Program-made: the position numbers and the translations under genes
The notes under the pieces: model-generated
What the model saw: the letters and a program-made list of their open reading frames with translations, nothing else
What the model was told of the DNA's origin: nothing
The model's database searches: none
Source: an uncultured Actinomycetes bacterium
GTDB lineage: Bacteria > Actinomycetota > Acidimicrobiia > IMCC26256 > DASPTH01
Direction of reading: 5' to 3'
Assembly: GCA_963819735.1 (NCBI GenBank)
Contig: CAWFXC010000005.1
Span: 425,825 to 489,824 of the forward strand
Length of the DNA: 64,000 bases
Shown here: positions 2,729-46,287 of the stretch, piece by piece
Position numbering within the stretch: the stretch's first letter is position 1
How the letters are laid out: every line of letters starts with the position of its first letter

Positions 2729-2860
2729 CCGCAGTCATAGTGTCCGCTACCAAGAGAGCGAAGTCCAATATGGGTCCCAACTGGTCAGCAAAGCGGTCGG
2801 GTGTGACCTTTTGCCGCGTACTCGGACGGGTATGGGGATCGCGGCGACCGGCCCAGCCCT

Positions 2861-5846: not shown

Positions 5847-5899
5847 TCTCTCCCTCGACGTTCCGTCGCGGGGACGCGCTCGAACCTCTGGGCGCTCGG

Positions 5900-6271: not shown

Positions 6272-6303
6272 CAGTCGGCTCCTGTCCGTCACTTGCTCTG
6301 CGG

Positions 6304-8320: not shown

Positions 8321-8417
8321 AGCGCATCCCGTCGTCCCGAGTGGCGTAAGGTCCAGGGAACTCCATCATTCAGGCCGAGGGTGCTCCTTGCCGTTGGCGT
8401 TCACGGAAGAGATCACC

Positions 8418-8693
8418 ATGCCTTTGCGTCGCAGACCGGTCGCTCGTTTGGCCACCACCGCCGTTGTGGCCGGCACCGCCGCCCACATGGGGGCAGCCTC
8501 AGCCCAGCGGAGCGCGGCCGCCCAAGCCCCGCCGGCACCGGTCGAAGCGGAAGCTCCCGTTGCTCCCGCTGCTCCCGAGTCCGACGCGGACGCGCAGATC
8601 GAAGAGATCAAGAAGCTGGGTGCGCTGAAGGATCAGGGCCTGCTCACCGACGAAGAGTTCGCGGCCAAGAAGGCACAGATCCTCGGGATCTGA
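8418..8693 (+). CDS. SHOCT-domain protein with an Ala/Pro-rich linker
   Basis: The C-terminus reads IEEIKKLGALKDQGLLTDEEFAAKKAQILGI, which is the SHOCT motif. ATG 8418 is preceded by gaagag. The ORF track starts the gene at 8388. Confidence 0.7.
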   Translation: MPLRRRPVARLATTAVVAGTAAHMGAASAQRSAAAQAPPAPVEAEAPVAPAAPESDADAQIEEIKKLGALKDQGLLTDEEFAAKKAQILGI

Positions 8694-8717
8694 GCCGATC
8701 CCCACGACGATCCACGC

Positions 8718-9938
8718 TCACGTGACCGAAGGTGCGGGCGTGAACTCGATCGGGACCTGGTCGTAGCCGCGCGCGAACGTCGACGGGATGATGTGAGGCT
8801 CGGGTTCGTCGGCGAGGCGCCAGTCGGGGATGCGGCGCAGCAGCTCCTCGAACATCACCCTGACTTCGAGGCGGGCGAACGACGCACCGAGGCAGAAGTG
8901 CGTGCCGATGCCGAACGACAGCTGCTGTTGCATATCGCGCGTGACGTCGAACACATCAGGGTCGACGAACTCTGCTTCGTCACGGTTCGCGGAGGGGTAC
9001 AGCAGGAGCACCTCGTCGCCCGCGTGCATCTCTCGGCCGTGGAGCTCGTGGTCCTCGGTGACGGTGCGGCGCATGTTGAGGATGGGGGACACCCAGCGGA
9101 TGAACTCCTCGACCGCGGTGCGGGCGAGGACCTCGGGACGGTCGAGGAGGATCTGGCGCTGGTCGGGCCGGAGCGCGAGCTCGCGGATGATGGCACCGAT
9201 CACGGTGCGGGTGGTCTCCGCCCCGCCGTCGAGCACGAGGATGCACTCGGCGAGGATCTCGGCGTCGGTCCACGGCCGACCTTCGGGGTAGCGCTCGGCC
9301 TGGACCCACGCCGAGATGAGGTCTTCGCGCGGGTTGGCCCGCCGGTCGTTGATGATGGCCACCGTCGTCGCGGCGAAGTCGACCATGGACTCGGCGAGCA
9401 ACGGGTGGTCGTGACGCATCGCGCCGTCGACGGGGGACGTCTGCCCACCGACGAACATGGTCGCCTCGGACCAGAACCGCACCTTCTCCCAGTGTTCGGG
9501 CGCGTAGCCGAGGCGACGCCCGATCATGATCGCGGGGAGACGCGACGCGATGGCCTCCACCGCATCGCACCGGCCGAGCGGCGCCACCGCGTCGATGATG
9601 CCGGTGACGACCTCACGCACTTCGTCCTCCTGGGTGACCACCGCCCGCGGGGTGAAGCGGCGGTGGATCAGCGCGCGGTGGTGCTGGTGCACCGGGTCGT
9701 CGGCATTGATCATCGACGGGTCGTCGGACTGATCGATGCGCGGCCGCGACCCGGGGACGGAGGTGTACGTCTGTGGGTGCTTCTCGACGTACATCACGTC
9801 CTCGAAGCGGGTGATGCCCCAGATGTGCTGCGTGTCGTCCCAGAACACGGGCTCGTGGGTGCGCATCCAGCGGTAGGGCTCCCACGGGTCGACGTAGAAC
9901 TCGGGGTCGAGCAGATTGATGTACGGACGCTCGGGCAT
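8718..9938 (-). CDS. cytochrome P450
   Basis: 406 aa from ATG 9938, with a ggaggacgg SD upstream. EEFIRW (ExxR) and the heme loop FGIGTHFCLGASFA are present. ORF-track entry 8718-10394 is over-extended. Confidence 0.92.
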   Translation of the reverse strand: MPERPYINLLDPEFYVDPWEPYRWMRTHEPVFWDDTQHIWGITRFEDVMYVEKHPQTYTSVPGSRPRIDQSDDPSMINADDPVHQHHRALIHRRFTPRAVVTQEDEVREVVTGIIDAVAPLGRCDAVEAIASRLPAIMIGRRLGYAPEHWEKVRFWSEATMFVGGQTSPVDGAMRHDHPLLAESMVDFAATTVAIINDRRANPREDLISAWVQAERYPEGRPWTDAEILAECILVLDGGAETTRTVIGAIIRELALRPDQRQILLDRPEVLARTAVEEFIRWVSPILNMRRTVTEDHELHGREMHAGDEVLLLYPSANRDEAEFVDPDVFDVTRDMQQQLSFGIGTHFCLGASFARLEVRVMFEELLRRIPDWRLADEPEPHIIPSTFARGYDQVPIEFTPAPSVT

Positions 9939-31801: not shown

Positions 31802-33082
31802 ATGAGCACGACTGGCTTCGAGAGCATCGACTTCTTCCGCGCGGGTGAGCTCTACCAGGACCCGTTCCCGTACTACGAGTTCCTGCGTTCGCACGGTCCC
31901 GTGTGGGCCGAGCCGCGCCGCGGCGTGTTCATGGTCACCGGCTACGAGGAAGCCATGGCCGCGTACAACGACACCGCGACGTACTCGAACTGCAACGCGG
32001 TGAGCGGGCCGTTCGTGAAGTTCCCCGAACCGTTCGTGGGTGACGACGTGAGCGACCTCATCGAGCGCTACCGCGACACGCTCCCGTTCAGCGATCAGCT
32101 CCCGACCTTCGACCCACCGAAGCACACCGCGCACCGGGGGCTGCTGCTGCGCCTGATCACGCCGAAGCGCATGAGGGAGAACGAGGAGTTCATGTGGCGG
32201 CTCGCCGACCGCCAGATCGACGAGTTCCTCGATCTCGGCGAGTGCGAGTTCATCGGCGACTACGCCGAGCCGTTCACGCTGCTGGTGATCGCGGACCTGC
32301 TCGGCGTACCCGAGGAGGATCACGCGACGTTCCGGGCGGAGTTGCAGGGCGACCAGCGCCCGGCCGAGAGCAAGGGCGAGAAGGGAGTCGTCGCGCACAA
32401 GCCGCTCGAGTTCCTCTACGACCGCTTCACCGGATACATCGAGGACCTGCGTGAGCATCCGCGACCCGATGTCATGACCCAACTCGCGACCGCGACGTTC
32501 CCCGACGGCACGCTGCCCGAAGTGCACGACATCATGCTGATCGCGTCCAACCTGTTCTCCGCGGGGGGCGAGACCACCGCGCGCATGCTCGGCACCGCGC
32601 TCCGGTACCTCGGTGAGCGCCCCGCGCTGCAGCGGCAGTTGCGCGACGACCGCTCGCTGATCCCCGCGTTCCTCGAGGAGTGCGTCCGGCTCCACAGCCC
32701 GATCCAGGGCAGCTTCCGGATGGCGCGCACGACCACGACACTCGGTGGTGTCGACATCCCCGCTGGCTCGACGCTCATGGTGCTCGCCGGCGCCGCCAAC
32801 CGCGACCCCCGCCTCCACGACGATCCCGCCGAGTTCAAGCTCGACCGCGTGAACGGTCGTCAGCACGTCGGATTCGGGTGGGGCGCCCACGTGTGCGTCG
32901 GCGCGCCGCTGGCTCGCGCCGAAGGCCGGGCCAGCCTCGAGCGCATCCTCGATCACATGGACGACATCCGAATCTCCGAGACCCATCACGGACCCACCGG
33001 TGAGTGGCGTTATCGCTACGAGCCGATCTTCATGCTCCACGGCCTCGAGGAGCTCCACCTCGAGTTCACACCCGGACCCTGA
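31802..33082 (+). CDS. cytochrome P450
   Basis: ATG 31802 follows a ggaggga SD. EECVRL (ExxR) and the heme loop FGWGAHVCVGAPLA are present. Confidence 0.92.
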   Translation: MSTTGFESIDFFRAGELYQDPFPYYEFLRSHGPVWAEPRRGVFMVTGYEEAMAAYNDTATYSNCNAVSGPFVKFPEPFVGDDVSDLIERYRDTLPFSDQLPTFDPPKHTAHRGLLLRLITPKRMRENEEFMWRLADRQIDEFLDLGECEFIGDYAEPFTLLVIADLLGVPEEDHATFRAELQGDQRPAESKGEKGVVAHKPLEFLYDRFTGYIEDLREHPRPDVMTQLATATFPDGTLPEVHDIMLIASNLFSAGGETTARMLGTALRYLGERPALQRQLRDDRSLIPAFLEECVRLHSPIQGSFRMARTTTTLGGVDIPAGSTLMVLAGAANRDPRLHDDPAEFKLDRVNGRQHVGFGWGAHVCVGAPLARAEGRASLERILDHMDDIRISETHHGPTGEWRYRYEPIFMLHGLEELHLEFTPGP

Positions 33083-33083
33083 C

Positions 33084-35429
33084 GTGGTGTCGACGAGCAC
33101 CGATCACCTCATCGGCACCACCAGGTACGCGGGCAACCGGGTACCGAGGGTCGAGGACGCCCGCCTGCTCACCGGGCAGGGAACATACGTCGACGACATC
33201 GTGCGCCCGGGCATGTTGCACGCGTGCTTCGTGCGCAGTCCGTTCCCGCGCGCGGGGATCGAGCGCATCGACGTCACGGAGGCACTGGCGGTGCCCGGCG
33301 TGCGCGCGGTCTTCACCGCCTCAGACGTGAACCCGACGCTCCACGAGCTCTGGTACACCGGGCAGGGCCCCAACTCGCCGACCACGCCGCTCCCTCCACT
33401 CGCCGACGGCGAGGTGCGCTTCGCCGGCGATCCGGTCGCCGTCGTGATCGCGGAGAACCGCTACCTCGCGGAAGACGCCGCCGAGCTCGTGATGGTCGAC
33501 TACGTCGAGCTGTCGCCGGTCGTCGACTACGTCACCGCGACGGAATCCGACCAACTCGTGCACGCGGAGTTCGCGAACAACGTGGTGGGGGACTTGGGCG
33601 GGGGTGCGTCCGATCGGGTCGACGCCGCCATCGCGGCCGCGGCCCACGTCGTGCAGGAGACGATCTTCGAGCAGGCCTATGCGGCCGTGCCGATGGAGAC
33701 GCGCGGGATCGTGCTCGAGTGGGCATCGGCGAGCGGAGAGCTCACAATCTGGGCGGCGACGCAGGCGCCGAACGAGGTTCGTTCGGTGTGCGCGCGTGTG
33801 CTCGGCCTGCCCGAGCACCGGATCCGGGTCGTGATGCGCGACACCGGCGGCGGATTCGGGCAGAAGGTGATGCCGCTGCGGGAGGAGGTGTGTCTCATGC
33901 TCGTGGCGCCGAAGCTGCCGGGGCCGGTCAAATGGATCGAGGACCGGCGCGAGAACCTGCTCGCCGCAGGTCAGGCCCGCCACGAGCACGCGGTCACCCG
34001 GATGGCGTTCGACCGCGACGGCATCATGCTCGCAACCGTGATCGATCACATACAGGACGCCGGCGCCTATCCGGTGCCGTGGCCGGTGTTCACCGGTGCC
34101 GCCGTCGGCATGATGTTCCCGGGCCCGTACCGCATCCCGGCGACGAGCTTCTCCCATCGTTCGGTGTTCTCGAACACCGTCGGACGCACCGCGTACCGCG
34201 GGCCGTGGGCGTTCGAGTCGGTCGCGCGCGAGGTGGTCCTCGACATCGCGGCGCGGCGTATCGGCATCGACGCCGTCGAGCTGCGGCGCCGCAACATGCT
34301 CGGCGCCGAGGATCTGCCCTACACGAACGGCAACGGCATGCCCTACGTGCACATGTCGCCGCGCGAGACCTTCGAGCACGCGCTCGAGATCCTGGGCTAC
34401 GACGCGTTCCGGCGCGAGCAGGCCGCCGCGCGCGCGGCCGGCCGATACCTCGGTGTCGGCACGAGCAGCTACGTGGAGCCGACCACGCCGGGTATGGGCT
34501 ACTACGCGAGCGAAGGCGCGACGATCCGCATCGACCCCACCGGGAAGGTGTGCGTCTACGTCGCGGGTGGGTCCACCGGCAACAGCCTGGAGACCACCGT
34601 GGTGCAGCTCACCGCCGACGCGCTCGGCGTACCGATCGAGGACGTCACCACGATCCAGGGTGACACCGCGCTCACGCCGTACGGCGCCGGAACCGGTGGC
34701 AGTCGCAGTGGGTCGATGATGGCCGGTGCGGTGGAGGTGACGGCGGCGGTGTTGTGCCACAAGCTCGTGGCCATCGCGGCGGCCAAGCTGGAGGCGGCAG
34801 CCGACGACATCGAGCTCGGCGGCGGCCGCGCCTTCGTCCGCGGCACGCCGACGGTCGGGATCACGGTGGCCGATCTCGCCGCGATCGCGTACAACCAGCC
34901 GGGCACGCTCCCGCCCGGCATCACCGCGGGGCTGGAGGCGAGCGAGCGGTACACGGCCTCGCCCATGCCGGTGTGGGCCAACGCGACCCACGTGTGCACG
35001 TGCGAGGTCGACGTCGCGACCGGTCGCGTGCAGTTGCTCCGCTACATCGTGAGCGAGGACTGCGGCCCGATGATCAACCCCGACGTCGTCGAGGGGCAGA
35101 TCGCCGGCGGCACGGCCCAGGGGATCGGCGGTGCGCTGCTCGAACACCTGGCGTACGACGAGCACGGCAACCCCGTGGCCACCACGTTCCTCGACTACCT
35201 CGTCCCCACGATGTCCGACATCCCGCCGATCGAGTACGGCCATGTCGGCACCCCCGGCGCCGGGCCCGGTGGCTACAAGGGCGTGGGCGAGGGCGGGGCG
35301 ATCGGCGCACCGCCGGCAGTGGTGAACGCGGTGGCCGACGCGCTCGCGCCGTTCGGCATCGACGTCACCCGGCTCCCGGTGCGCCCCGACACCATCGTCC
35401 GGCTCGTGCGGGAAGCCACGTCGCGCTAA
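33084..35429 (+). CDS. molybdopterin-binding large subunit of the xanthine dehydrogenase / aerobic CO dehydrogenase (CoxL-like) family
   Basis: GTG 33084 lies 1 nt after the P450 stop. VPRVEDARLLTGQGTYVDDI, DTGGGFGQKV, TAYRGPWAFES and GVGEGGAIGAPPAV are present. The form-I CO dehydrogenase loop VAYRCSFR is not present. Confidence 0.88.
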   Translation: MVSTSTDHLIGTTRYAGNRVPRVEDARLLTGQGTYVDDIVRPGMLHACFVRSPFPRAGIERIDVTEALAVPGVRAVFTASDVNPTLHELWYTGQGPNSPTTPLPPLADGEVRFAGDPVAVVIAENRYLAEDAAELVMVDYVELSPVVDYVTATESDQLVHAEFANNVVGDLGGGASDRVDAAIAAAAHVVQETIFEQAYAAVPMETRGIVLEWASASGELTIWAATQAPNEVRSVCARVLGLPEHRIRVVMRDTGGGFGQKVMPLREEVCLMLVAPKLPGPVKWIEDRRENLLAAGQARHEHAVTRMAFDRDGIMLATVIDHIQDAGAYPVPWPVFTGAAVGMMFPGPYRIPATSFSHRSVFSNTVGRTAYRGPWAFESVAREVVLDIAARRIGIDAVELRRRNMLGAEDLPYTNGNGMPYVHMSPRETFEHALEILGYDAFRREQAAARAAGRYLGVGTSSYVEPTTPGMGYYASEGATIRIDPTGKVCVYVAGGSTGNSLETTVVQLTADALGVPIEDVTTIQGDTALTPYGAGTGGSRSGSMMAGAVEVTAAVLCHKLVAIAAAKLEAAADDIELGGGRAFVRGTPTVGITVADLAAIAYNQPGTLPPGITAGLEASERYTASPMPVWANATHVCTCEVDVATGRVQLLRYIVSEDCGPMINPDVVEGQIAGGTAQGIGGALLEHLAYDEHGNPVATTFLDYLVPTMSDIPPIEYGHVGTPGAGPGGYKGVGEGGAIGAPPAVVNAVADALAPFGIDVTRLPVRPDTIVRLVREATSR

Positions 35430-35486
35430 GTGCACGCGTCGCCGGACTCCGACAACTCATCGAACACCGAACGGGAGGAACGACAA

Positions 35487-36230
35487 ATGGGAGAGCTCGA
35501 CGGCAAGGTGGCCGTCATGACCGGCGCGGGCTCCGGCATGGCGAAGGCCGCCGCGCGGGTCTTCGTGCGCGAGGGCGCCAAGGTGCTCGCGGCCGACGTG
35601 AGCGGCCGCGAGGAGCAGACCGCGGCCGAGCTGGGCGCCGCCGTCGTGCCGTTCCACGTCGACGTCACGAACGAGGCCGAGGTCGAGGCCATGTTCGCGG
35701 CCGCGTTCGACGCGTTCGGTCGGGTCGACGCGGTGCTGAACGTCGCCGGGCTCGGAAGCGGCGGAATGCTCGTCGACCTCACGCTCGAGGAGTACCAACG
35801 GATCATGGAGGTCAACCTCAAGGGCGTGATGCTCGGCACGAAGCACGGGGTCAAGGCGCTGCTCCAGACCGGGGGCGGCGTGATCCTGAACTGGTCGTCG
35901 ATCGGTGGCATGAACGTGTCGCTGGGGACGAGCGTGTACTCGGCGACCAAGGCGGGCGTGATCTCGTTCACCAAGTCGGCGGCCATCGAATACGGGGCGG
36001 AGGGCGTGCGGGCCAACGCGATCTGTCCGGGCTTCATCGAGACCGAGATGTCGGGTGGCAAAGGCGCGGGCGAGCGGTTCCCCCAGATGATCCAGGGCTC
36101 GGCGCTCAAGCGCGCCGGTCAGCCGGAGGAGGTCGCGGAGCTTGCGTCGTTCCTCGCGTCCGACCGTGCGAGCTTCATCACCGGCGCGGTGATCCCCATC
36201 GACGGCGGCACGACGGCCGCCCTCCGCTGA
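35487..36230 (+). CDS. SDR-family oxidoreductase
   Basis: ATG 35487 follows a gggagg SD. TGAGSGMAKAAA and YSATKAGV are present. Confidence 0.9.
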   Translation: MGELDGKVAVMTGAGSGMAKAAARVFVREGAKVLAADVSGREEQTAAELGAAVVPFHVDVTNEAEVEAMFAAAFDAFGRVDAVLNVAGLGSGGMLVDLTLEEYQRIMEVNLKGVMLGTKHGVKALLQTGGGVILNWSSIGGMNVSLGTSVYSATKAGVISFTKSAAIEYGAEGVRANAICPGFIETEMSGGKGAGERFPQMIQGSALKRAGQPEEVAELASFLASDRASFITGAVIPIDGGTTAALR

Positions 36231-36330: not shown

Positions 36331-37542
36331 GTGACCTCGACCGCGACGGGTGCGCTGTACTACGACCCCTACGACGTCACCATCAACGCCGATCCCTATC
36401 CGGTGTTCCGACGCCTGCGGGAGGAGGCGCCGCTCTACTACAACGAAGCCCACGACTTCTACGCCGTGAGTCGTTACGAGGACGTCGAGCGCGGCCTGGT
36501 CGACCGCGGCACGTTCATCTCGGGACGCGGCGCCGTCCTCGAGTTGATCAAGGCGAACATCGAGATGCCGCCGGGGATCCTGATCTTCGAGGACCCGCCC
36601 GGTCACACGATCCACCGTGCCCTGCTGTCGCGCGTGTTCACACCCCGGAAGATGAACGCGCTGGAGCCGCAGATCCGTCAGTTCTGTGTCGACTGCCTCG
36701 ATCCGCTCGTCGGTGCCGGCGGTTTCGACTTCGTGGCTGATCTCGGCGCGCAGATGCCGATGCGGGTGATCGGCATGCTCCTCGGAATACCCGAGGAGGA
36801 CCAGGCGGCGATCCGCGACCATTCGCACGAGAGTCTGCGCACCGAGGAGGGCGAGCCGATGCGCTACTCGCAGGACGATTTCGTGAGTGGCGCGATCTTC
36901 GCCGACTACGTCGACTGGCGGGCCGATCACCCCTCCGATGACATCATGACGCAGCTGCTGATCGCAGAGTTCGAGGACGCGACGGGCATCACGCGTCGCC
37001 TCACGCGGAACGAGGTGCTCACCTACGTCAACGTGATTGCCGGCGCGGGCAACGACACGACCAATCGGCTGATCGGCTGGGCCGGGAAGGTGTTGGCGGA
37101 CCACCCCTCCCAGCGCCGCGAGCTGGCGGCCGATCCGTCGTTGGTCCCGAACGCGATCGAGGAGCTCCTGCGCTACGAACCGCCGGCGCCCCACGTCGGC
37201 CGGTACGTCGCGAGCGACGCCGAGTTCCACGGTGTCACCGTCCCTGCGGGCAGCGCACTCCTCTGTCTCGTCGGCGCCGCCAACCACGACGACCGGCGTT
37301 TTCCCGACGGCGAACACTTCGACATCCACCGCGAGATCGGTCAGCACCTGGCGTTCGGGTACGGCCCGCACTTCTGCCTGGGCGCGGCGCTGGCGAGGGT
37401 CGAGGGACGGGTCGCGTTGGAGGAGGTGCTGCGACGCTTCCCCGACTGGGATGTCGACATGGACAACGCGCGGCTCGCGCCGACCTCGACCGTCCGGGGC
37501 TGGGAGAACCTCCCGGTCGTCACCGGCGAGCGCTCGTTGTGA
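36331..37542 (+). CDS. cytochrome P450
   Basis: EELLRY (ExxR) and the heme loop FGYGPHFCLGAALA are present. The start codon is GTG. Confidence 0.92.
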   Translation: MTSTATGALYYDPYDVTINADPYPVFRRLREEAPLYYNEAHDFYAVSRYEDVERGLVDRGTFISGRGAVLELIKANIEMPPGILIFEDPPGHTIHRALLSRVFTPRKMNALEPQIRQFCVDCLDPLVGAGGFDFVADLGAQMPMRVIGMLLGIPEEDQAAIRDHSHESLRTEEGEPMRYSQDDFVSGAIFADYVDWRADHPSDDIMTQLLIAEFEDATGITRRLTRNEVLTYVNVIAGAGNDTTNRLIGWAGKVLADHPSQRRELAADPSLVPNAIEELLRYEPPAPHVGRYVASDAEFHGVTVPAGSALLCLVGAANHDDRRFPDGEHFDIHREIGQHLAFGYGPHFCLGAALARVEGRVALEEVLRRFPDWDVDMDNARLAPTSTVRGWENLPVVTGERSL

Positions 37543-37563: not shown

Positions 37564-38127
37564 TTACACCCCAGCTGGGTCGGGATGGCCGCTGGCGGCG
37601 CGCTGCTTCTCGGTGAACGTGTACGCCCAGTAGAGGGCGCCGAAAGGAACGAGGATCCGCAGCAGGATCGGGAAGCGGTCCGTGTTGGCGGCGACGAGGA
37701 GCGAGATGGAGCCGACCACGAACGCGAGGCCCCACGCGGTGGAGATGACCCGGTTGATCCGGTGGAACTCCGCACTGTTCCAGAACTAGCGTGGCACTGA
37801 TTCGCGGGCGTAGGACTCCGTGAACGGGTGCCCGATCAGGACCGATCCGAGCACGATGATCGTGAGCGCGATGTGCGCGCCGGCCTGCGCGTAGTTCGAG
37901 ATGTCGCCCTGCGCGCTGGAGTCGGCCGCGAGGACCACGATCAGGAGCCCGACGAAGTACACGAGGCTGGCCACGTCGAGCAGGTGGACGTGCTGGTGCA
38001 GCAACGCGCGGCCGAGCACCACCACGGCGGCGGCGACCGCGCAGGCGGCCGCGTCCTCGAGTGTCGCGAAGCGGTCGACGACGATGAACAACAGCCAGGG
38101 CGCGAAACTCCAGATCAGTTCAGTCAT
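37564..38127 (-). pseudogene. small multi-pass membrane protein interrupted by an in-frame TAG (37786-37788)
   Basis: The upstream 113 codons are MTELIWSFAPWLLFIVV...HPFTESYARESVPR, ending in a stop. The same frame then continues without a gap as FWNSAEFHRINRVISTAWGLAFVVGSISLLVAANTDRFPILLRILVPFGALYWAYTF...GV, ending at TAA 37564-37566. Both halves are hydrophobic and coding-like. Confidence 0.55.
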
Positions 38128-38205
38128 CGTGATCTTCCGGTGGTGGCGGGGTCGTGACAACGTAGAGGTCGACGGCCTGCGCGCGCACGTGGCACACTCG
38201 CCGCG

Positions 38206-39141
38206 ATGAGGGCTGTACGCGCGGTCGAAGGCGGAGTGGCAGTGGTCGACGTCGACGCGCCGCCCGGCCAGGGGGAGCTGCTCACCATGCGGGCGGCGGG
38301 GATCTGCGGCTCCGACTTCGGCTACATCGCGGGCGGAAGCCGCTTCCTGCTCGGGCACGAGCTGGTGGGTGTCCGGGAAGACGGCACGGCCGTCGCGGTC
38401 GAGGCGCTCTACGGGTGCATGGACTGCGACCTGTGTCGCGACGGCGCCTACAACCTCTGCCTCCGGCAGTCCGAGACCGCCCTCGGGTTCTCGGCCGACG
38501 GCGGGATGGCCGAGCAGTTTCGTGCCCCGTCGGTCCGGCTGGTGGCGCTCCCCGCCGGTCTCGACCCGGCCGACGGATCGCTGGTCGAACCCGCGACCGT
38601 GGCCTGGCACGGCGTGCGCCTCGGCGGCACCGGACCGGGGCGGACGGTCGCCGTCGTCGGCGGTGGCGCGATCGGGCAGCTCGCGGTGGCGGGCGCGCAG
38701 GCGCAGGGGGCCGACGCGGTCGCGCTCGATGCCCGCTACGAGCGCCAGCGGGAGATCGGGGAGCAATCGGGCGTCGGCCCGCCAGAGGGCATGTACGACG
38801 TCGTGATCGAAGCGGCGGGCTCGCCGAGCGCGTTGGCGCGCAGCATCGAGTTGGTCGCCCCCGGCGGTTCCGTGGTGGTGCTCGGCGTGCACATTGCCGA
38901 CTTCAGCCCCGACTTCCTGAGCATCTTCCTCAAGGAAGCGCGCATCGTGCCGTCGATCGGGTACTGCCGGCACAGTGGTGGTCGCGACATGGCCGACGCC
39001 GCGGCCATGCTGGCGGAACGGCCGGACCTCGTCGACGCGCTCGTCACGCACCGCTTCCCGCTCGAGGATGCGGTGGAGGCGTTCCGGGTCGCGCAGGATC
39101 GGCAGAGCGGCGCAGTGAAGGTGGTCATCGAGCTCGGATGA
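38206..39141 (+). CDS. zinc-dependent alcohol dehydrogenase (MDR family)
   Basis: GICGSDFGY, GHELVG, the structural-zinc cysteines CMDCDLCRDGAYNLC and the Rossmann motif VVGGGAIG are present. Confidence 0.88.
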   Translation: MRAVRAVEGGVAVVDVDAPPGQGELLTMRAAGICGSDFGYIAGGSRFLLGHELVGVREDGTAVAVEALYGCMDCDLCRDGAYNLCLRQSETALGFSADGGMAEQFRAPSVRLVALPAGLDPADGSLVEPATVAWHGVRLGGTGPGRTVAVVGGGAIGQLAVAGAQAQGADAVALDARYERQREIGEQSGVGPPEGMYDVVIEAAGSPSALARSIELVAPGGSVVVLGVHIADFSPDFLSIFLKEARIVPSIGYCRHSGGRDMADAAAMLAERPDLVDALVTHRFPLEDAVEAFRVAQDRQSGAVKVVIELG

Positions 39142-39180
39142 CCGTGCTCCCTGCGGTCGGACCCGCGGCCGCGGCGCGCC

Positions 39181-40482
39181 CTACGAGGTGGCGTTCGGCG
39201 GATCACTCTCCGCGTCACCCTGTTGCGCGTCACTCTGCTGCGCGTCGCGCAGCATCCTCGCCATCGATTGCAGGAGCTTCCAGCCGATCACGCCGTCCTG
39301 CTGCACGAGCGGACGGAATTCCCAGTACGTGAGCCCGTGGCACACGAGGTCGGTCGTGGCGGTGATCGTGGCCATACGTTGGCCTTCGTCGATCAGCGCG
39401 ATCTCCCCGAAGTGGTCGCCGGGCCCGAGCGTGCCGCGCTCGACGCCGCGGATCGACACCGTTGCCTCACCCGAGTCGATGAGGAAGAACGCGGCGCCGC
39501 CGGAGCCTTCCCGGATGACGGTCTCGCCCGCCGCGAACCTCCGGAGCTTCGAACAGCGCGCGATCTGCTCGACTTCCTGCTCGTCGAGATCCGCGAAGAG
39601 TGGCACCCGCTGCAGGACCTCCGCCGGATCGCCCGCCTCGGCATCGGGCGCGGGCGCCGAGGCGCTCGACGCGCTCGTGGTGACCGCCCGGCACTGCAAC
39701 AGGTAGAGGACGCCGTCGGCGAACGCGAACTCGATGTCGCGGGCCTTGCCGTAGACGGCCTCGCACCGGACTGCGAGCTCGTTCAATTGCGCGAGCTGGT
39801 CGTCGTCGAGGCAGAGCTTCTCGGTGCGCTCCGGCGGCACCTGCTCCTCGAACGTGCCCCCGTCGGGGAGTGAACGGATGGCGACCCGTTTGAGCCCGGG
39901 GTTGCGTTCGAGCACCTTTCCGGCGCGGTCGACGCGGTAGCTGTCGGGGATCACGAGCCCGGCGACCACCGCCTCCCCGAGTCCCCAGCTCGCCTCGATC
40001 ATCCGCTCGTCGGCTCCGGTGACCGGGTTCTCGGTGAACATCACTCCCGCCGCATCGGGATCGAGCAACGACTGCACGACCACGCCGATGCTCGGGCGCG
40101 TGAACAACCCGACGCGTTGCCGGTAGGTGATGGCGGAATCCGAGTTCGCCGACCACCAGATCTCGCGCAGTGCCGACGGCACTTCGGCGACCGACGGCAC
40201 GTTGAGCACCGTGAGGTGTTGCCCGGCGAAGCTGGCGTCCTTCCCGTCCTCGTCGACGGCCGACGAGCGCACCGCGAGCGGCGTCTTCAGTCCGCGCACC
40301 GCGTCGGACACCCGGGCGATCATCTCCTCGTCCTCGGATGCGACCGCTTCGACCACGGGTCCCGAGAGCGCGACGCCGGGCGGTACCGGGAGGCCGTCGC
40401 GGATGGCGTCGCCGAGCCCGACTGCCTTGGAACCGAAGATCGACAGTTCGCGCGCCTCGGCGAGCGGAACGACCTGCGTCAC
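39181..40482 (-). CDS. PEP/pyruvate-binding (PPDK_N, ATP-grasp) domain protein fused to a C-terminal cyclic-nucleotide-binding domain
   Basis: The N-terminal domain reads FGSKAVGLGDAIRDGLPVPPG, LAVRSSAVDEDGKDASFAGQHLTVLNV, VVVQSLLDPDAAGVMFTENPVTG, EASWGLGEAVVAG and DIEFAFADGVLYLLQCRAVT. After an Ala/Ser/Pro linker comes VPLFADLDEQEVEQIA...GDHFGEIALIDEGQRMATITA (CAP-type cNMP-binding). GTG 40482 overlaps the upstream stop as GTGA. Confidence 0.85.
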   Translation of the reverse strand: MTQVVPLAEARELSIFGSKAVGLGDAIRDGLPVPPGVALSGPVVEAVASEDEEMIARVSDAVRGLKTPLAVRSSAVDEDGKDASFAGQHLTVLNVPSVAEVPSALREIWWSANSDSAITYRQRVGLFTRPSIGVVVQSLLDPDAAGVMFTENPVTGADERMIEASWGLGEAVVAGLVIPDSYRVDRAGKVLERNPGLKRVAIRSLPDGGTFEEQVPPERTEKLCLDDDQLAQLNELAVRCEAVYGKARDIEFAFADGVLYLLQCRAVTTSASSASAPAPDAEAGDPAEVLQRVPLFADLDEQEVEQIARCSKLRRFAAGETVIREGSGGAAFFLIDSGEATVSIRGVERGTLGPGDHFGEIALIDEGQRMATITATTDLVCHGLTYWEFRPLVQQDGVIGWKLLQSMARMLRDAQQSDAQQGDAESDPPNATS

Positions 40483-42117
40483 CCGAGCACCATGACGGTG
40501 CCGGCACCGCCGTCGACGCGTACCCGGGTGCCATCCGGGATGCGTTCGGTTGCTTCGCGCGTGCCCACCACGCCGGGGATGCCGTACTCGCGCGCCACGA
40601 TCGCCGAGTGCGAGAGGAGGCCGCCGTTGTCGGTGACGATGGCGCCGAGGAGCGGCAGCAGGATGTTGAACGCTTCGGTGGTGGCCGGCGTGAGGAGCAC
40701 GTCGCCCTGCTGGATCCGACCGAACTCCGACGGGCCGGCCACGAGACGGGCCGGACCCTCGTAGACGCCCGGACTCGCCGCCAACCCGCGCAGGCGGTCG
40801 TGCTCGTGCTCGGCTTCGGAGCTGCCGAAGAGCGAGTCCAACGCGATGCCCGTCGCCCGCATGAGGCGTCCGATGTCGGGCGGCAGGCCTGACGGGTCGG
40901 GCGGCGGCTGCGGCGGGTCGCCGATGAACGCAGGCGCTTCCTTGGCGGTGTGGGTGGCGCGGTACTCGGCGCGCGCGGCCAGCTCCTCGGCCGAGGGTCC
41001 GCCGGTGTCGGTGACCAACGCGCGCATCTCGCCGACCGTTGCGTCGACCATGTGCACGGGATCGTCGATCCGGCCGCGTGCTGCGACGCGCCGGCCGGCT
41101 GCGAGCGCGGCGCGACGCATCAGGCCCGAGGCCCAGATGTCGCTGTAGATGCCCCGCTCGTCACGGAGTCGGTACGTGAGGCGGGCTTCCCCGAGCAGCT
41201 CGTCGAACTCAGCCTGGTTCGCCTCCGGCACCCGGGCCCGCACCCCGGCGATCTTGTCGTCGACGTCGGCGCCCTCCAGGTCGCGTCCCGACACCGCGAT
41301 GCGGATCGCGCGCACCAGCGCGTCGGGCAGCTCGAGCGCGGCGGGCTCCGAGATGTCGAACCCGTCGAGCGGGCGGTTGCCGATGAGCTCGAGGTAGCCG
41401 GTGACCGCGGCGCCCGACTCACCGTCGAGCGCGCGCAGGGCTGCGAGCACAGTGGCGGGGTCGTCGTCGGACTCGAGGATTGCGATCGCGGCCGGGTCCT
41501 GGGCGATCGACTTCAGCCGCTCGAGCTCGACTGATCCGCCGGCCGAAACCGGCGCCGCGCCCCGGAGGAGACCGAGCAGCTCGGCGTAGGAGATGCCCGT
41601 CCAGTCGCCCACGTGGGCGAGGAAGTCGCCGGTGGGGATCATCGCCCCGGCGGTGTAGCGCATGTGCTGCGTGATCATCGCGGAGTGGTGTTCGGAGCAG
41701 CGGGTGAGGTACGCCGCCAGGTCGTCGTCGGACAGCGAATCCGGGTCGACCGCCTGGATCTCGCGGTGCTTCGCGATCGCGTTCGGCTTGCTCGTCTCGT
41801 CCCACTCGCGCAGCTGCTCACGCCAGAGCTTCCCCGCGAACACCTCCTCGGCCCGGGCGAAGCGCTGCGGAACCTCTTCGTCGGGTACCGGCTTGGGCTG
41901 GTTGTAGGCAAAGCCGTTCAGGTAGGCGGTCTGCAAGCCGTCGATGAGCATCCCGTAGTAGCGCGCGAAGTCGCCCGTGCCCTTGATGAACGCGGTCGGG
42001 ATGCATCTCGGCCCAGTAGTGCGTGACCGGGCGGGGGAAGTGCACGGCATCCCGTCCCCACGGCCCGGGGCCGGGCGCCACGAACTGCAGCTCTTCCGTC
42101 GACGTGGCATCCACCAT
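40479..42117 (-). pseudogene. PEP-utilizing-enzyme mobile (swivel phosphohistidine) domain protein with a long helical N-terminal region; apparent 1-nt insertion frameshift near 41994
   Basis: The C-terminus reads GDVLLTPATTEAFNILLPLLGAIVTDNGGLLSHSAIVAREYGIPGVVG, which is the swivel His domain. ATG 42117 has a gaggag SD 8 nt upstream and encodes MVDATSTEELQFVAPGPGPWGRDAVHFPRPVTHYWAEMHPD. The protein-like sequence then continues in the +1 frame as AFIKGTGDFARYYGMLIDGLQTAYLNGFAY. Confidence 0.7.
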
Positions 42118-42167
42118 CGGTATCGCTCCTCGATCGGTTCATTTGGAACGCCCTCACCGGCAGGCGG

Positions 42168-42196
42168 ATTATGTGCGCTCGACCACCGAGGCGCAA
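42168..42196 (-). promoter_or_regulatory. candidate promoter TTGCGC-17 nt-CATAAT (minus strand) upstream of the swivel-domain gene
   Basis: The hexamers were read on the reverse strand in the 86-nt gap between the epimerase stop (42204) and ATG 42117. Confidence 0.3.
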
Positions 42197-42203
42197 CCAC
42201 GCG

Positions 42204-43184
42204 TCAGCCGACCGCGTCGAGACCGGTGATCTCCGTGAACAGTTGCCGGAACGACTGGTCGAAGTTGGTCCGACACGGCCCGGTGAGGGCGCGTCGACGG
42301 GTCGGATCGGCGAGGGCGCCGGCCGGACTGCCGGGTACGGACCGGACGTCGATGCGCCCGTCGCGCCCGGACCACGCCGCCGCGTCACCGACCCACTGCT
42401 GCACGGTGGTGACGTCGTCGCCGCAGAGGTTGGTGATGAACGCCGGGTTGCCCGCGGCCTCGAGCAGCGGCTCGAGCATCCACTTGATGTCTTCGATGTG
42501 GATCGGGGAGTGCGGCGTGGGATCCGACGGGGCGACCATCGTCTGGCCGGCCATGACCGCGTCGATGTGCATCGCGGGGAAGGTTCCCGGCAGCCCCATG
42601 AGCGTGTTCAGCCGGGGGATGACCACCGGGAGATCGAAGGCGCGGGCGCAGAACCGGGCCACGCTCTCGACCCCGAGCTTGCAGGCCGGGCTCGTCGGTG
42701 CGTACGCGGTGGCGCCCCGCCCGATCGGATCCGCTTCGCCGTAGGCCCACCAGGGATCGTCGTTGGCCGAGTAGATCCCCATCCCGGACATCACGAGGGC
42801 GGCCTTGGCGGTTCGGCAGTGCTGCAGGATCAGGCCCGCACCCTCGACGTTGGCCCGCATGGCGTCGTCGAGCTGGTCGAGGTCGGCGCGCAACCACGCC
42901 AGATGCAAGAGATAGGTGAAGTTGTCGGGCAGCTCGTGGAAGTCGCCACTCGCCAGGTCGACCTGCCGGACCTGCACGCCGGACGCCTCGAGCGCTTCGC
43001 GGGTGGAGAGCGCGCGCGTCGGCGCGGGGGTCGCGACGGCGTGGTAGGTCTCGCGCTCACGATCGACCGACTGGCCGAGCCGGGCGAGTCCCCAGACCTC
43101 GTTGTCCTGCGCGAGGTGGAGCGCGAGCGCGGACCCGATGGTGCCGGTCACGCCGGTGACCAGGATCCGCTCGTCAGTGATCAC
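42204..43184 (-). CDS. NAD-dependent epimerase/dehydratase (extended SDR) family protein
   Basis: Reading from GTG 43184 (GTGA overlap with the sulfotransferase stop) gives VITDERILVTGVTGTIGSALALHL. The ORF track over-extends the gene to 43310. Confidence 0.82.
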   Translation of the reverse strand: MITDERILVTGVTGTIGSALALHLAQDNEVWGLARLGQSVDRERETYHAVATPAPTRALSTREALEASGVQVRQVDLASGDFHELPDNFTYLLHLAWLRADLDQLDDAMRANVEGAGLILQHCRTAKAALVMSGMGIYSANDDPWWAYGEADPIGRGATAYAPTSPACKLGVESVARFCARAFDLPVVIPRLNTLMGLPGTFPAMHIDAVMAGQTMVAPSDPTPHSPIHIEDIKWMLEPLLEAAGNPAFITNLCGDDVTTVQQWVGDAAAWSGRDGRIDVRSVPGSPAGALADPTRRRALTGPCRTNFDQSFRQLFTEITGLDAVG

Positions 43185-44353
43185 GAGTCGATCCCGAATC
43201 GTCGCGTGTAGAAGCGAAAGCGCGCTCGCAGCCGGTCGGGGTCGAGGCCGAACTCCTCCGCGGTGTACCGGTGCGCGCCGTGTTGATCCTTCGGGTGATC
43301 GTCCAGCCATCGCTGGACCGCCTGCTGGGACTGCTCATCGAAGTCCATGCCCGCCCATTCGCACACCGCGGCGACCGCGCCGATCGGATCGTTCATCATC
43401 GCGTCGTAGTGCAGATCGAGGTTGCGCGCCTCCGGCACCGTACCGCCGTCGCGCGTGGCCAGGCCTCGGTGCAGCGACAGCTCCTCCATCACGACCCATT
43501 CGGCGCCGAACTGCTTGCGATCGAAGTCGGGGGTGTTGCTCTCGCGCATCAGCCCGGTGAGGCTGAGCGCCGACGGCAGCACGACCGCCGGATCGCGGTG
43601 CGTCCACACGAGGAGTGCGTCGGGATACGTCTCGAGCAGCGCGTCGAGCGACAGGAGGTGCTTCGGGTACTTCAGGACCCAGCGGCCGGGGTTGTGCCAC
43701 TGCAACTGCTGGAGGGTCCGTCGGTGCGCTTCGTACATCGGCGTGTAGTCCGCCCCGAGGTACCAGTCGCGGTAACCCGGGATGTCGAACGACGCCATCC
43801 ACGCCTGGTTGAGGAAGCTCCAGTCGTTCAGCAGATTGCACTGCTCGGGTCGTGTCGCCGACATGGGGTGGCGGATGAGCAGCTCGGCGGGTAGCTGGTC
43901 GAGGGCGGCCTGTACCTCGGCGATGCGGGGGTCAGTGGCGAAGGTGGCGCGCTCGGGCGGCGGCGACGGCGCCGACATCTCCCACATCAACGGGCCCCGG
44001 AATCCGGTCACGCACGCGAGCAGCGCGTGGAGATGCGTCGAGCCCGAGCGCGGTGGTCCGACGATGAAGATCGGCGCGTCGATCGCTTCGTCGGCGATAC
44101 CGGGATTCTGCGCGCGGTCGGCGACGAGGCGAAGTCGCTTGACCAGCACGCCGGTCAACATCTCGTTGACGCGCGCCTGCACGCTCCCGGAGACCCGCGC
44201 GTCGTCGTTGAAGGAACGCACGAGGACGTGGAGCGCGTCGGTGAACGGCAGGTCGCCGTAGTCGTCGAGCGCGGCGATGCGGATTGCATCCGCCAGCAAC
44301 TGCTCGACGGAGAGCGTTCCCGCCTCGTCGCTCGGCTCGCGCACCGCACCCAT
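43181..44353 (-). CDS. sulfotransferase family protein (PAPS-dependent, Sulfotransfer_3-like)
   Basis: The 5-prime-PSB loop IFIVGPPRSGSTHLHALL and the 3-prime-PB region VWTHRDPAVVLPS are present. 390 aa. Confidence 0.85.
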   Translation of the reverse strand: MGAVREPSDEAGTLSVEQLLADAIRIAALDDYGDLPFTDALHVLVRSFNDDARVSGSVQARVNEMLTGVLVKRLRLVADRAQNPGIADEAIDAPIFIVGPPRSGSTHLHALLACVTGFRGPLMWEMSAPSPPPERATFATDPRIAEVQAALDQLPAELLIRHPMSATRPEQCNLLNDWSFLNQAWMASFDIPGYRDWYLGADYTPMYEAHRRTLQQLQWHNPGRWVLKYPKHLLSLDALLETYPDALLVWTHRDPAVVLPSALSLTGLMRESNTPDFDRKQFGAEWVVMEELSLHRGLATRDGGTVPEARNLDLHYDAMMNDPIGAVAAVCEWAGMDFDEQSQQAVQRWLDDHPKDQHGAHRYTAEEFGLDPDRLRARFRFYTRRFGIDS

Positions 44354-44378: not shown

Positions 44379-45188
44379 TCAAGCCGGCGCGGGTCGCACC
44401 CGGGCCAGGATCGCCGAGCCGCGGCGACCGCGGCCTCCGTCTTCGATCAGGTTGACGCGTACGAGGCCCTCCGACGGCGGGCCGACGAAACGGAACTCGG
44501 TCACGATCGGCGAGACGCGGTTCTGCGCGAGGTAGCGGATCTCCATCTCGGTCACCACGTGGAGGTCGGTACCGAGCGCCCGATGGTGGTCGGCGAGGTC
44601 CTCGGCCGCCGCCTCGGCGAGCGCGGCGACCATTGCGCCCTGGAGCGCGCCCGCCGGGTTCAGGAGGTCGTAGCGCAGGTCGACGGAGGCGACGCCGCGG
44701 GCCCGGTCGAGGGTCTCGATGCCGACGGCCTCGCGGACGGGGATGTCGAGTGGCGGGGCGGTGCCGCGCGCGACGACGCCCGCGGTGTCGATCTCGATCT
44801 TCGACTCGCCCTCCCGGCGGGGGACTCTCGCGAACCCGGCGAAGCACGTGCCCCACTCGGTTCCGTCGACGAAGAGCGGCGCCTCACACGTGACCGAACG
44901 CCGCCCGGCGCGCAGGGTGGTCGACCACGACTCGATGCTCGCGGGCGGCGGGGCCAGCGGCGCCCGCACCGACAGCTCGGAAGTGAACAGCCACGACTCG
45001 ACGTCCTGGTCGACCGGCACGCCGGTCACCACGTCGGTCAGGTAGACGATGGCCGCGGCCGGCACCACTCCCCGCACGCACAGCGCCGTCGGCGGATGGA
45101 GGATCCCGACGAACCGGTCGTCGTCGAGCCGGAACGACACGCCGAGCCGGCTCGGGATCATGTGGAAGTCGGCGGGGACATCGGTCAC
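44379..45188 (-). CDS. double hot-dog fold thioesterase-like protein
   Basis: 269 aa with two repeats of similar length. The second repeat carries LLNPAGALQGAMVAALAEAAAED, a PaaI/4HBT-like helix. The family call is moderate. Confidence 0.65.
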   Translation of the reverse strand: MTDVPADFHMIPSRLGVSFRLDDDRFVGILHPPTALCVRGVVPAAAIVYLTDVVTGVPVDQDVESWLFTSELSVRAPLAPPPASIESWSTTLRAGRRSVTCEAPLFVDGTEWGTCFAGFARVPRREGESKIEIDTAGVVARGTAPPLDIPVREAVGIETLDRARGVASVDLRYDLLNPAGALQGAMVAALAEAAAEDLADHHRALGTDLHVVTEMEIRYLAQNRVSPIVTEFRFVGPPSEGLVRVNLIEDGGRGRRGSAILARVRPAPA

Positions 45189-45237
45189 GGGAGGCGAAGC
45201 TAGCGTCCAGCGTGACCTTCCTCACTCAGGAGCACGC

Positions 45238-46287
45238 ATGACTACCGCGCCGCCCGTACCCGACACGATCGAGCAGGCCCTCGACCCCGCGTGGCTCACC
45301 GACGCACTCGGCCTCCGCTTTTCGGGCATCGAGGTCACTCGGGTCACGCCCGGACCGGTGGTGGAGCGTCTCTCCACCAACGCGCGCTTCCGCATCGAGT
45401 GTGCGGGAGGCCTCCCCGACGGTCTCGTGCCCACGCTGTGCGTGAAGGGCTACTTCGGTGAGAAGGGGCGCCCGATGGCCCACGTGGGTGAGCCGGAGGC
45501 GCATTTCTACGCGACGCTCGCCGAGGCGACCGGCGTGCACACGTTGCGCAGCGTCTACGCCGACGTGAACCCCGCGTCGCACCACGGCGTGGTGATCACC
45601 GAGGACGTCGTCGCCGCGGGTGGTGAGTTCCTCGACGCACTCTCTCCGTACACGCCGGAGCAGACGGCGCAGAGCCTCGCCCAGTTCGCCCGGCTCCACG
45701 CCGGCACGTGGGGCGTGAACGACCTCATCGACGAGCCGTGGCTCGCCTCCCGTATCCCGTCGTACTTCGCGTACCGCGGCGTCGACGACATCCAGAAGAA
45801 CTTCGACGGAGCAGTCGGGGTCGATGTCGCGCCCGAGGTGCGCGACGCGCAACGCCTGGTCGACGCGCTGTGGGTGCTCGCCGAACGCAGCGAGAGCCCG
45901 GGTTGGACGGTCATCCACGGCGACGCCCACGTGGGCAACATCTTCCTGGACGCCGACGGCGCCCCTGCACTCGTCGACTGGCAACTCGTGCAGCGCGGCC
46001 ACTGGGGCATCGACGTGGGCTACCACATCGCCTCGGCCCTCACGACTGCCGATCGCGAGGCCCACGAGCGCGATCTCCTCACGCACTACCTCGAGTGCCT
46101 GCGCTCGCACGGCGTCGACGCGCCCGGATGGGACGACGCGTGGGACGCGTACCGGGCCGGGATCGTGTACGGCTACTTCCTCTGGGCGATCACGCTGGTC
46201 GTGAAACCGGCGATCATCCAGGTGCTGCTGCAACGGCTGAGTGCGGCCGCCGCCGCGCACGATTCCTTCGGCGCGATCGGCGTGTGA
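45238..46287 (+). CDS. phosphotransferase (APH / choline-kinase-like) family protein, paralog of 6304-7332
   Basis: ATG 45238 follows a caggag SD. VIHGDAHVGNIFLDADGAPALVDWQ is present. It shares the C-terminal GYFLWAIT...RLSAAAAAHDSFGAIGV block with the other copy. Confidence 0.85.
   Translation: MTTAPPVPDTIEQALDPAWLTDALGLRFSGIEVTRVTPGPVVERLSTNARFRIECAGGLPDGLVPTLCVKGYFGEKGRPMAHVGEPEAHFYATLAEATGVHTLRSVYADVNPASHHGVVITEDVVAAGGEFLDALSPYTPEQTAQSLAQFARLHAGTWGVNDLIDEPWLASRIPSYFAYRGVDDIQKNFDGAVGVDVAPEVRDAQRLVDALWVLAERSESPGWTVIHGDAHVGNIFLDADGAPALVDWQLVQRGHWGIDVGYHIASALTTADREAHERDLLTHYLECLRSHGVDAPGWDDAWDAYRAGIVYGYFLWAITLVVKPAIIQVLLQRLSAAAAAHDSFGAIGV

Follow-up and report, generated by a model that had tools for sequence, protein, structure and literature searches.

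We describe a pair of overlapping genes on the minus strand of contig CAWFXC010000005.1, from an uncultured bacterium of the Acidimicrobiia (Actinomycetota). The window, by which we mean the whole stretch of 64,000 nucleotides (nt) that was analyzed (contig positions 425,825 to 489,824), has a G+C content of about 69% throughout. Gene 1 encodes a long helical region followed by a swivel phosphohistidine domain, while gene 2 encodes an ATP-grasp domain fused to a domain of the type that binds cyclic nucleoside monophosphates (cNMP). We read the locus, with a probability of roughly 60%, as a two-component His-swivel dikinase of small molecules in which the cNMP domain gates the ATP half-reaction and which has a stand-alone trapping or detoxifying role. 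The cNMP-fused dikinase pair is widespread, strongly conserved, mobile and experimentally tractable.

Domains of the two genes

Gene 2 is an intact open reading frame (ORF) that begins on the stop codon of gene 1. It is made up as follows.

39181-40482, minus strand: gene 2, intact ORF of 433 amino acids (aa), ATP-grasp fused to a cNMP-binding domain (ORF listing, Pfam)
40479-40482, minus strand: GTGA overlap, with the GTG start of gene 2 on the TGA stop of gene 1 (read from the sequence)
39667-40482, minus strand: short ATP-grasp domain (PPDK_N), residues 1-272 (Pfam; alignment with the rifampin phosphotransferase of Listeria monocytogenes, RPH-Lm)
39619-39666, minus strand: variable linker rich in Ala, Ser and Pro, residues 273-288 (low conservation)
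39238-39618, minus strand: cNMP-binding domain, residues 289-415 (Pfam, PKG and PKA matches)

An earlier annotation that used no database searches, here called the sequence-only reading, had assigned PPDK_N and cNMP-binding domains to gene 2. Pfam confirmed both, placing PPDK_N (PF01326) at residues 43-281 (E = 6.5e-62) and cNMP_binding (PF00027) at residues 314-396 (E = 1.6e-14; 54 bits, with the cut-off at 27.5). All four of the peptide motifs it had quoted were found in the sequence, and the GTGA overlap at 40479-40482 is exact. The best match of gene 2 in the Protein Data Bank (PDB) was the ATP-grasp domain of Listeria RPH (E = 5e-38). We calculated conservation in gene 2 as the frequency of the top residue per column in 78 family members, among which K19, R72, T91, E251, Q263 and R265 were invariant. 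The first three of these correspond to Lys22, Arg117 and Thr136 of RPH-Lm, all of which are essential by mutagenesis (PMC4844700). The mean top-residue frequency was 0.83 in the ATP-grasp domain, 0.80 in the cNMP domain and 0.51 in the linker.

The cNMP domain matched the cyclic-nucleotide-binding domains of PKG and of PKA regulatory subunits with E-values of 1e-39 to 1e-24. Its phosphate-binding cassette, FGEIALIDEGQRMATITA at 39358-39411, aligns with the functional PKG and PKA cassettes and fits the pattern F-G-E-[LI]-A-L-x(4,5)-R-x-A-T, with F358, G359, E360, R369, A371 and T372 invariant in the 78 sequences. In PKG, a Thr after the cassette Arg favors cGMP. The family has Ser, Ala, Met or Leu at this position and not the PKG-type Thr, and we therefore lean towards cAMP, which we predict to be the most likely ligand.

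Effector domains of the CRP/FNR type bind diverse ligands, which speaks for a different view of this domain: that it binds another ligand, such as the product AMP, a different nucleotide or the substrate, or that it only dimerizes or localizes the protein. Phenylphosphate synthase has a third, 24-kDa gamma subunit that stimulates the reaction and whose nearest homolog is AcuB (PMC6114531), which sets a precedent for an accessory module that senses nucleotides or energy without cNMP. We nevertheless regard this view as improbable, considering that the FGE...R-x-A-T residues that contact ribose and phosphate are invariant in all 78 sequences and align with the functional PKA and PKG cassettes.

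Gene 1 has homologs of a uniform length (545-546 aa), which carry the precomputed Pfam domains Rph_4th (PF27448) and PEP-utilizers. Two of its parts are listed here.

41112-41174, minus strand: most conserved helical block, YRLRDERGIYSDIWASGLMRR, residues 315-335 (invariant columns in alignment A3)
40500-40715, minus strand: swivel phosphohistidine domain (PEP-utilizers; Pfam E = 3e-20)

This order, a long helical region followed by a swivel domain at the C-terminal end, is the one given in the sequence-only reading. That reading found no assignable motif in the middle of the gene, where our results differ: the helical region is a homolog of RPH's rifampin-binding domain. The homology is supported by Rph_4th, an assignment that rests on the precomputed annotations of the gene 1 homologs, and by a Foldseek search with an AlphaFold2 model of P0121, a 98%-identical homolog (predicted local distance difference test score, pLDDT, 68.7; predicted template modeling score, pTM, 0.66). 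The top match of the model was RPH-Lm (5fbt/5hv1), with E-values of 8e-14 to 1e-11 over 560-590 columns. RPH-Lm was also the sole PDB entry that aligned over most of the model, the other matches being restricted to the swivel domain. Gene 1 therefore corresponds to the rifampin-binding and swivel domains of RPH and gene 2 to its ATP-grasp domain. RPH has likewise been reported as the sole PDB entry to align over most of HpeH (PMC12167813), a protein of the two-component dikinases discussed below. A hidden Markov model comparison of the helical domain with RPH aligned a weak stretch of 90 residues, in which no equivalents of Arg666 and Glu667 were assigned.

The conserved helical block has the family pattern YRLRDERGxYSDxWASGLMRR, which is also kept in a 45%-identical Streptomyces relative. 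Together with the VHFPRP motif near the N-terminus, it is a candidate acceptor site. The swivel domain matches those of PEP (phosphoenolpyruvate) synthase and RPH in the PDB with E-values of 1e-17 to 1e-24. The catalytic His of two-component dikinases lies near the C-terminus in the motif T/S-x-x-G-G-x-x-x-H (PMC12167813). Its counterpart here, His503 (codon CAC at 40608-40610), sits in T-x-x-G-G-x-x-S-H, and the full segment T495-D-N-G-G-L-L-S-H503 (TDNGGLLSH) is invariant in A3, with a Leu where PEP synthase has its regulatory Thr.

The source annotation names the product "pyruvate, water dikinase", and there were sub-threshold matches to NCBIfam PEP-synthase models. That the locus is an ordinary PEP synthase or pyruvate phosphate dikinase (PPDK) split into two genes is nonetheless next to negligible as an explanation. 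The PEP-utilizers_C TIM barrel was not found in either protein, even at E ≤ 1 for the gene 1 homologs, and all PEP synthase and PPDK models scored far below their cut-offs, which leads us to conclude that the locus is neither enzyme. Gene 1 bears the RPH-type helical domain instead. RPH proper was also rejected, as the modules are split over two genes and the RPH equivalog model NF041857, whose cut-off is 999 bits, gave scores of 177 and 92. The MarK kinase, considered as a relative, has an unrelated fold (UPF0261). The best NCBIfam model for gene 1 was PRK08296.1-1, which is annotated only as a hypothetical protein. With 122 bits against a cut-off of 730, gene 1 is distant from this model.

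The ORFs, the Pfam domains and the overlap bear out that the three modules of a dikinase are split over two coupled genes. The sequence-only reading had called the split and the permuted order unusual, but they are the standard layout of PpsAB, CreHI and HpeHI/AcvAB (PMC12167813, PMC6114531). In these two-component dikinases, component 1 consists of an RPH-like substrate domain and the swivel domain, and component 2 is the ATP-grasp protein (PMC12167813). The split layout is thus already known, and the new feature is the C-terminal cNMP domain on the ATP-grasp subunit. We found no literature on a fusion of a cNMP domain with PPDK_N or another dikinase domain, in agreement with the earlier statement that a cNMP-fused ATP-grasp has no characterized example.

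Reading frame of gene 1

The sequence-only reading gave gene 1 as 42117-40479. The ATG and TGA at these ends are correct, but the 1639 nt that they enclose are not a multiple of three and do not form one open frame. It had overlooked a frameshift, caused by base 41996, that breaks the frame after codon 40.

42126-42130, minus strand: Shine-Dalgarno-like AGGAG, 8 nt upstream of the gene 1 ATG (read from the sequence)
41997-42117, minus strand: 5' segment of gene 1, ATG and codons 1-40, frame A (translation identical to P0121)
41996, minus strand: single extra base, A on the minus strand and T on the plus strand (DNA alignment with L003 and L004)
40479-41995, minus strand: remainder of gene 1, frame B, ending in TGA (ORF listing; 98% identity to the 545-aa P0121)

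Codons 1-40 read MVDATSTEELQFVAPGPGPWGRDAVHFPRPVTHYWAEMHP and match the homologs of loci L001 and L002 up to HP. This segment carries the motif GPGxWxxDxVHFPRPxTxYW, the columns of which are invariant across the family in A3. Past codon 40, homologous gene 1 sequence resumes in the other frame (AFIKGTGDFARYYG...). The extra base has the context CCCGaCCGCG in the window and is missing from the nearest relative, L003. Deleting base 41996 restores a 545-aa ORF that is 98% identical to P0121 and free of further lesions. A programmed frameshift was ruled out, since the nearest relatives L003 and L004 lack the extra base and the shift is therefore not conserved.

Whether gene 1 is a pseudogene in this organism, with a real frameshift and a truncated or N-terminally deleted product, depends on the origin of this base. 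The frame is broken by a single base that L003 and L004 lack, a restart further downstream would drop the invariant N-terminal motif, and several other ORFs of 800-1000 aa in the window are undamaged, so that the assembly is not obviously error-ridden. Conversely, gene 1 is otherwise 98% identical to an intact homolog and has no further lesions, and gene 2 is intact. Gene 1 also lay in more than one frame in nine of 84 related loci (two or three frames in L005, L017, L024, L026, L028, L058, L062, L063 and L072). All nine are metagenome-assembled genomes (MAGs) with MFD names, of which there were about 35 and which we take to be long-read Microflora Danica assemblies; none of the roughly 49 other assemblies had a split gene 1. 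The restriction to MFD MAGs suggests that assembly indels are common in this GC-rich gene and points to a frequent artefact. The frameshift at 41996 may be an assembly artefact or a very recent mutation, and we consider a pseudogene a real possibility, though the weaker one.

Distribution, mobility and genomic context

The fusion of PF01326 and PF00027 was present in all of the 120 database clusters that best matched gene 2 (72-96% identity). In a scan of one genome per species, at least 587 genomes contained a relative, and the best 80 of these were full-length fusions. The hosts of the best 80 included Acidimicrobiia and other Actinomycetota, Acidobacteriota, Alpha-, Beta- and Deltaproteobacteria, Verrucomicrobiota, Chloroflexota, Binatia, NC10/Rokubacteria and the cultured Variovorax sp. 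YR216. Clustering at 50% identity reduced the fusion family to essentially one representative, P0241. The family is therefore common, as the sequence-only reading had considered it might be, while a characterized function, the other half of that suggestion, was not found.

Gene 1 and gene 2 are obligate partners. A comparison of the neighborhoods of 84 related loci showed gene 1 directly upstream of gene 2 in 83 of them, and in most of these 83 the two genes were joined by the same 4-nt junction, with gene 1 ending at the start of gene 2. The only fusion gene without an upstream gene 1 was that of L080 (3000-7300), from a Terriglobia MAG, where it is preceded by two alpha-amylase-family genes of lower GC content. 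This layout suggests a rearrangement or a chimeric assembly.

The next relatives were ATP-grasp proteins, with 42-54% identity in the ATP-grasp, that stand alone at about 270 aa. Others are fused to different domains: P0263, P0267 and P0274 have the architecture PPDK_N+MFS_1, while P0276 and P0280 combine a MarR-like/O-methyltransferase region with PPDK_N. P0300 and P0311 (878-880 aa) join PEP-utilizers and PPDK_N in a single chain, which supports the pairing of swivel and ATP-grasp. None of the unfused or otherwise fused short ATP-grasp relatives has a cNMP domain. An upstream PEP-utilizing partner with a 4-nt overlap was also found in L091 and on a plasmid of Streptomyces sp. NBC_01001 (L085), where the partner is 45% identical to gene 1 over its full length. 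The Streptomyces plasmid carries the nearest unfused pair, which adjoins a helix-turn-helix regulator. In L092 (1-11064), an MFS-fused pair lies amid genes for KAS III, adenylating enzymes, a carrier protein and an AurF-like oxygenase, surroundings that look like a natural-product gene cluster. Unfused and MFS-fused relatives have the same partner, and the window pair therefore belongs, as a derived form, to a larger clade of two-component dikinases. This clade is associated with small-molecule and natural-product chemistry. Matches on Rhodococcus plasmids (H9, H12) were ordinary long proteins of the PEP-synthase type and were uninformative.

Gene 2 proteins were 90-98% identical between MAGs labeled as different phyla. 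At the DNA level, L035 (NC10) was 94-97% identical over 2.9-3.0 kb to loci of Rokubacteria, Verrucomicrobiota, and Delta- and Alphaproteobacteria. The similarity runs from about 90 nt upstream of gene 1 to about 20 nt past gene 2, beyond which the flanks are unrelated. Such cross-phylum cassettes occurred in L031, L035, L040, L043, L053, L058, L060, L061 and others, Binatia included, with the pair at about 4364-7251 of these loci (6-kb flanks). The G+C content was 0.68 ± 0.03 in the cassette and 0.65 ± 0.05 in the flanks; the cassette lay 8-13 GC points above the flanks in low-GC hosts and was equal to them in hosts from the Actinomycetota. These comparisons indicate a recent transfer across phyla from a high-GC donor lineage, to which the window organism plausibly belongs. 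The differing flanks and the base composition argue for real transfer despite possible MAG binning errors.

No integrase, other mobile-element genes or repeats were noticed at the cassette borders, and a search of 72,556 plasmids found no full-length fusion. An intact viral copy was not found either; viral contigs gave only two truncated fragments, in the IMG/VR contigs L088 (4574-5454) and L089 (5890-6770), which are 47% identical to residues 172-424 of gene 2. They adjoin two large serine recombinase genes, and no ORF of at least 200 aa covers the match. The fragment probably represents what is left of a gene where a mobile element inserted.

A self-contained and mobile two-gene module in variable contexts could also be an anti-phage effector that answers a cyclic-nucleotide alarm, as in Pycsar or CBASS, and the cNMP domain does match PADLOC models of Pycsar TIR effectors (E = 1e-14). 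However, these matches are limited to the generic cNMP domain, and gene 1 matches nothing in PADLOC. There is no cyclase among the operon partners, and class III nucleotide cyclase genes were found within 6 kb in only eight of the 84 loci. Defense genes are not typically conserved at 56-100% across phyla, and the viral contigs yielded only the two truncated fragments. A defense role is therefore very unlikely in our judgment.

The eight cyclase-bearing loci are L044, L045, L051, L058, L067, L070, L077 and L082. In Variovorax sp. YR216 (L045), genes with SAM-cyclase-AAA_16 and Fer2-cyclase-globin architectures flank the pair (471-3689 and 7507-8832). As support for cNMP control, this proximity is suggestive but weak.

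We clustered the neighboring ORFs of 85 loci all against all and found no conserved third gene, the commonest other neighbor being a generic SDR (nine loci). This bears on the alternative that the pair is a catabolic phenolic kinase, a functional ortholog of PpsAB, CreHI or HpeHI that traps a phenolic growth substrate, with cAMP as a carbon-starvation switch. The two-gene layout and the mechanism are those of the phenolic dikinases, for which a scavenging role has been proposed (PMC12167813). Moreover, the hosts are soil bacteria, and some relatives carry a fused O-methyltransferase domain of a kind acting on hydroxyls of small molecules. Against this, the 85 loci show no conserved catabolic partner next to the pair, such as a carboxylase or a phosphatase, gene 1 has 545 aa compared with about 70 kDa for PpsA and HpeH, and it reaches only 122 of the required 730 bits on PRK08296.1-1, its best NCBIfam model. 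We consider catabolic scavenging unlikely overall, though it is a serious rival to a stand-alone dikinase.

Scans of 38900-42500 for riboswitches or known RNAs in the leader and for promoter and terminator consensus sequences gave nothing significant. The neighbors of the pair in the window are listed below, those upstream of gene 1 first.

42204-43310, minus strand: NAD-dependent epimerase/NAD_binding_4 gene, upstream
43181-44353, minus strand: Sulfotransfer_3 gene, upstream
44379-45188, minus strand: 269-aa ORF without a Pfam match, upstream
45049-46287, plus strand: EcKL/APH-type kinase, divergent, upstream
32853-35429, plus strand: large subunit of a molybdopterin aldehyde oxidase/xanthine dehydrogenase, downstream of gene 2
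35430-36230, plus strand: SDR, downstream
36331-37542, plus strand: cytochrome P450, downstream
37786-38133, minus strand: small hydrophobic 115-aa ORF without a Pfam match, downstream
38206-39141, plus strand: Zn-dependent alcohol dehydrogenase, convergent with gene 2, downstream

Several of the upstream neighbors are of enzyme types that conjugate small molecules (sulfotransferase, kinase). In the 80%-identical L001, the pair likewise has Sulfotransfer_3 and APH genes nearby, but the upstream neighbors are not conserved in the wider family. The Zn-dependent alcohol dehydrogenase also adjoins the pair in the 96%-identical L003.

Proposed reaction and known systems

The reaction cycle that we propose is modeled on homologs, its mechanism having been shown by experiment in PpsAB, HpeHI or RPH (PMC12167813, PMC6114531, PMC4844700). 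ATP would be bound in gene 2's ATP-grasp domain. The swivel domain of gene 1 would then dock on gene 2, and His503 would attack the beta-phosphate and become pyrophosphorylated, after which the gamma-phosphate would be hydrolyzed off as Pi. The phospho-His domain would return to the helical domain of gene 1 and phosphorylate a hydroxyl of a bound small molecule, leaving AMP, Pi and the phospho-compound as products. We also infer the acceptor and the gating by cNMP. Tethered by the linker, the cNMP domain would gate the ATP-to-His half-reaction, for example by hindering closure of the grasp or docking of the swivel until a nucleotide binds. Two phosphoanhydride bonds of ATP would thus be spent only in the presence of a second messenger.

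The pair most likely acts alone and, like RPH, would trap, detoxify or inactivate a hydroxylated small molecule; a role as the entry step of a set catabolic route is improbable. Because it is self-sufficient and mobile and has no downstream catabolic partners, we favor a trapping or inactivating role over committed catabolism. A more specific version holds that the pair is a cNMP-gated, RPH-like inactivating kinase for a widespread hydroxylated natural product or xenobiotic, which would act only once cAMP or cGMP reports a suitable physiological state and which now spreads as a 3-kb unit of promoter and two genes through at least half a dozen soil phyla. We put this version forward tentatively and regard it, as a whole, as rather unlikely.

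Several observations count against a cNMP-gated dikinase with a stand-alone role. The frameshifted gene 1 may render the enzyme inactive in this organism. There is no nucleotide cyclase in the 64-kb window, and the association with cyclases is weak at about 10% of loci. The structure model of gene 2 (pLDDT 53.6) was too poor to be used for a contact between the cNMP and ATP-grasp domains. Second-messenger control is atypical of a resistance or detoxification enzyme, and the acceptor and activity of the family are predictions from analogy. Finally, the phylum labels of the MAG loci come from binning and may be partly wrong.

Bacteria have few direct enzyme outputs of cAMP and cGMP signaling. 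CRP-type regulators make up most of them, together with the acetyltransferase Pat, one universal stress protein and a number of channels. If our reading of a cNMP-gated dikinase is correct, the pair would be a new class of output for bacterial cNMP signaling. It would also bring cNMP control, and allosteric control by a sensor, to the His-swivel dikinase (PEP-synthase/RPH) superfamily for the first time. Its abundance in soil metagenomes, strong conservation and mobility suggest that it is useful to many unrelated bacteria. Among its relatives are enzymes that inactivate rifamycins and others that trap phenolics derived from lignin. Knowing the substrate of the pair could uncover a new activity in detoxification, resistance or scavenging, and the enzyme might offer a ligand-switchable kinase for biocatalysis.

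The closest parallels to the window pair are the two-component dikinases, whose literature spans 2004-2025. PpsAB of Thauera aromatica, which has PpsC as well, acts on phenol, CreHI of Corynebacterium glutamicum on 4-methylphenol, and HpeHI of Rhodococcus rhodochrous GD02 and AcvAB of Sphingobium SYK-6 on 4-hydroxyacetophenone and acetovanillone (PMC12167813). HpeH combines the RPH-like substrate domain with the swivel, its conserved His being essential, and HpeI is the ATP-grasp protein. The two form only a transient complex, and HpeH alone exchanges phosphate between phenolic substrates (PMC12167813). In PpsAB, the alpha-subunit His receives a diphosphoryl group from the beta subunit (PMC6114531). 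Judged from published layout, fold and motif, these systems have the gene order, RPH-like fold and His motif in common with the window pair. As in the window, the regulatory Thr of PEP synthase is absent from them, and PpsA and CreH share with gene 1 a Ser before the catalytic His. Their chemistry, in which ATP yields AMP, Pi and a phospho-product in PpsAB and HpeHI, is presumably the same here. The known HpeH, CreH and PpsA members are about 45% identical to each other.

The differences lie in size, regulation and context. The window ATP-grasp has about 270 aa, compared with about 340-370 in the two-component dikinases, and is extended by the C-terminal cNMP domain, while gene 1 has 545 aa compared with about 610-640 in these systems (about 70 kDa for PpsA and HpeH). 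Unlike the two-component dikinases, the window pair has no neighboring carboxylase or catabolic genes. PpsAB relies on a separate 24-kDa stimulatory subunit, whereas the sensor of the window pair is fused.

RPH of Listeria monocytogenes (PDB 5FBS/5FBT/5HV1) has the same three catalytic modules and works by itself, inactivating a small molecule with no partners from a pathway. In RPH, however, the ATP-grasp, rifampin-binding and swivel domains form, in this order, a single chain without a cNMP domain, and its substrate domain is about 20% identical to that of the window pair.

The mycobacterial Pat/KATmt proteins (MSMEG_5458, Rv0998) are cAMP-activated lysine acetyltransferases in which a cNMP domain controls catalysis allosterically. 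Like gene 2, they are bacterial enzymes fused directly to a CAP/PKA-type cNMP domain, and the cNMP domain of gene 2 matches the NCBIfam Pat model (E = 4e-9). The sensor of Pat is N-terminal to a GNAT domain that targets protein lysines, while that of the window pair is C-terminal to the ATP-grasp of a two-subunit phosphotransferase. Pat may thus be seen as the architectural analog of the window cNMP domain, and the gamma subunit of phenylphosphate synthase as its functional analog.

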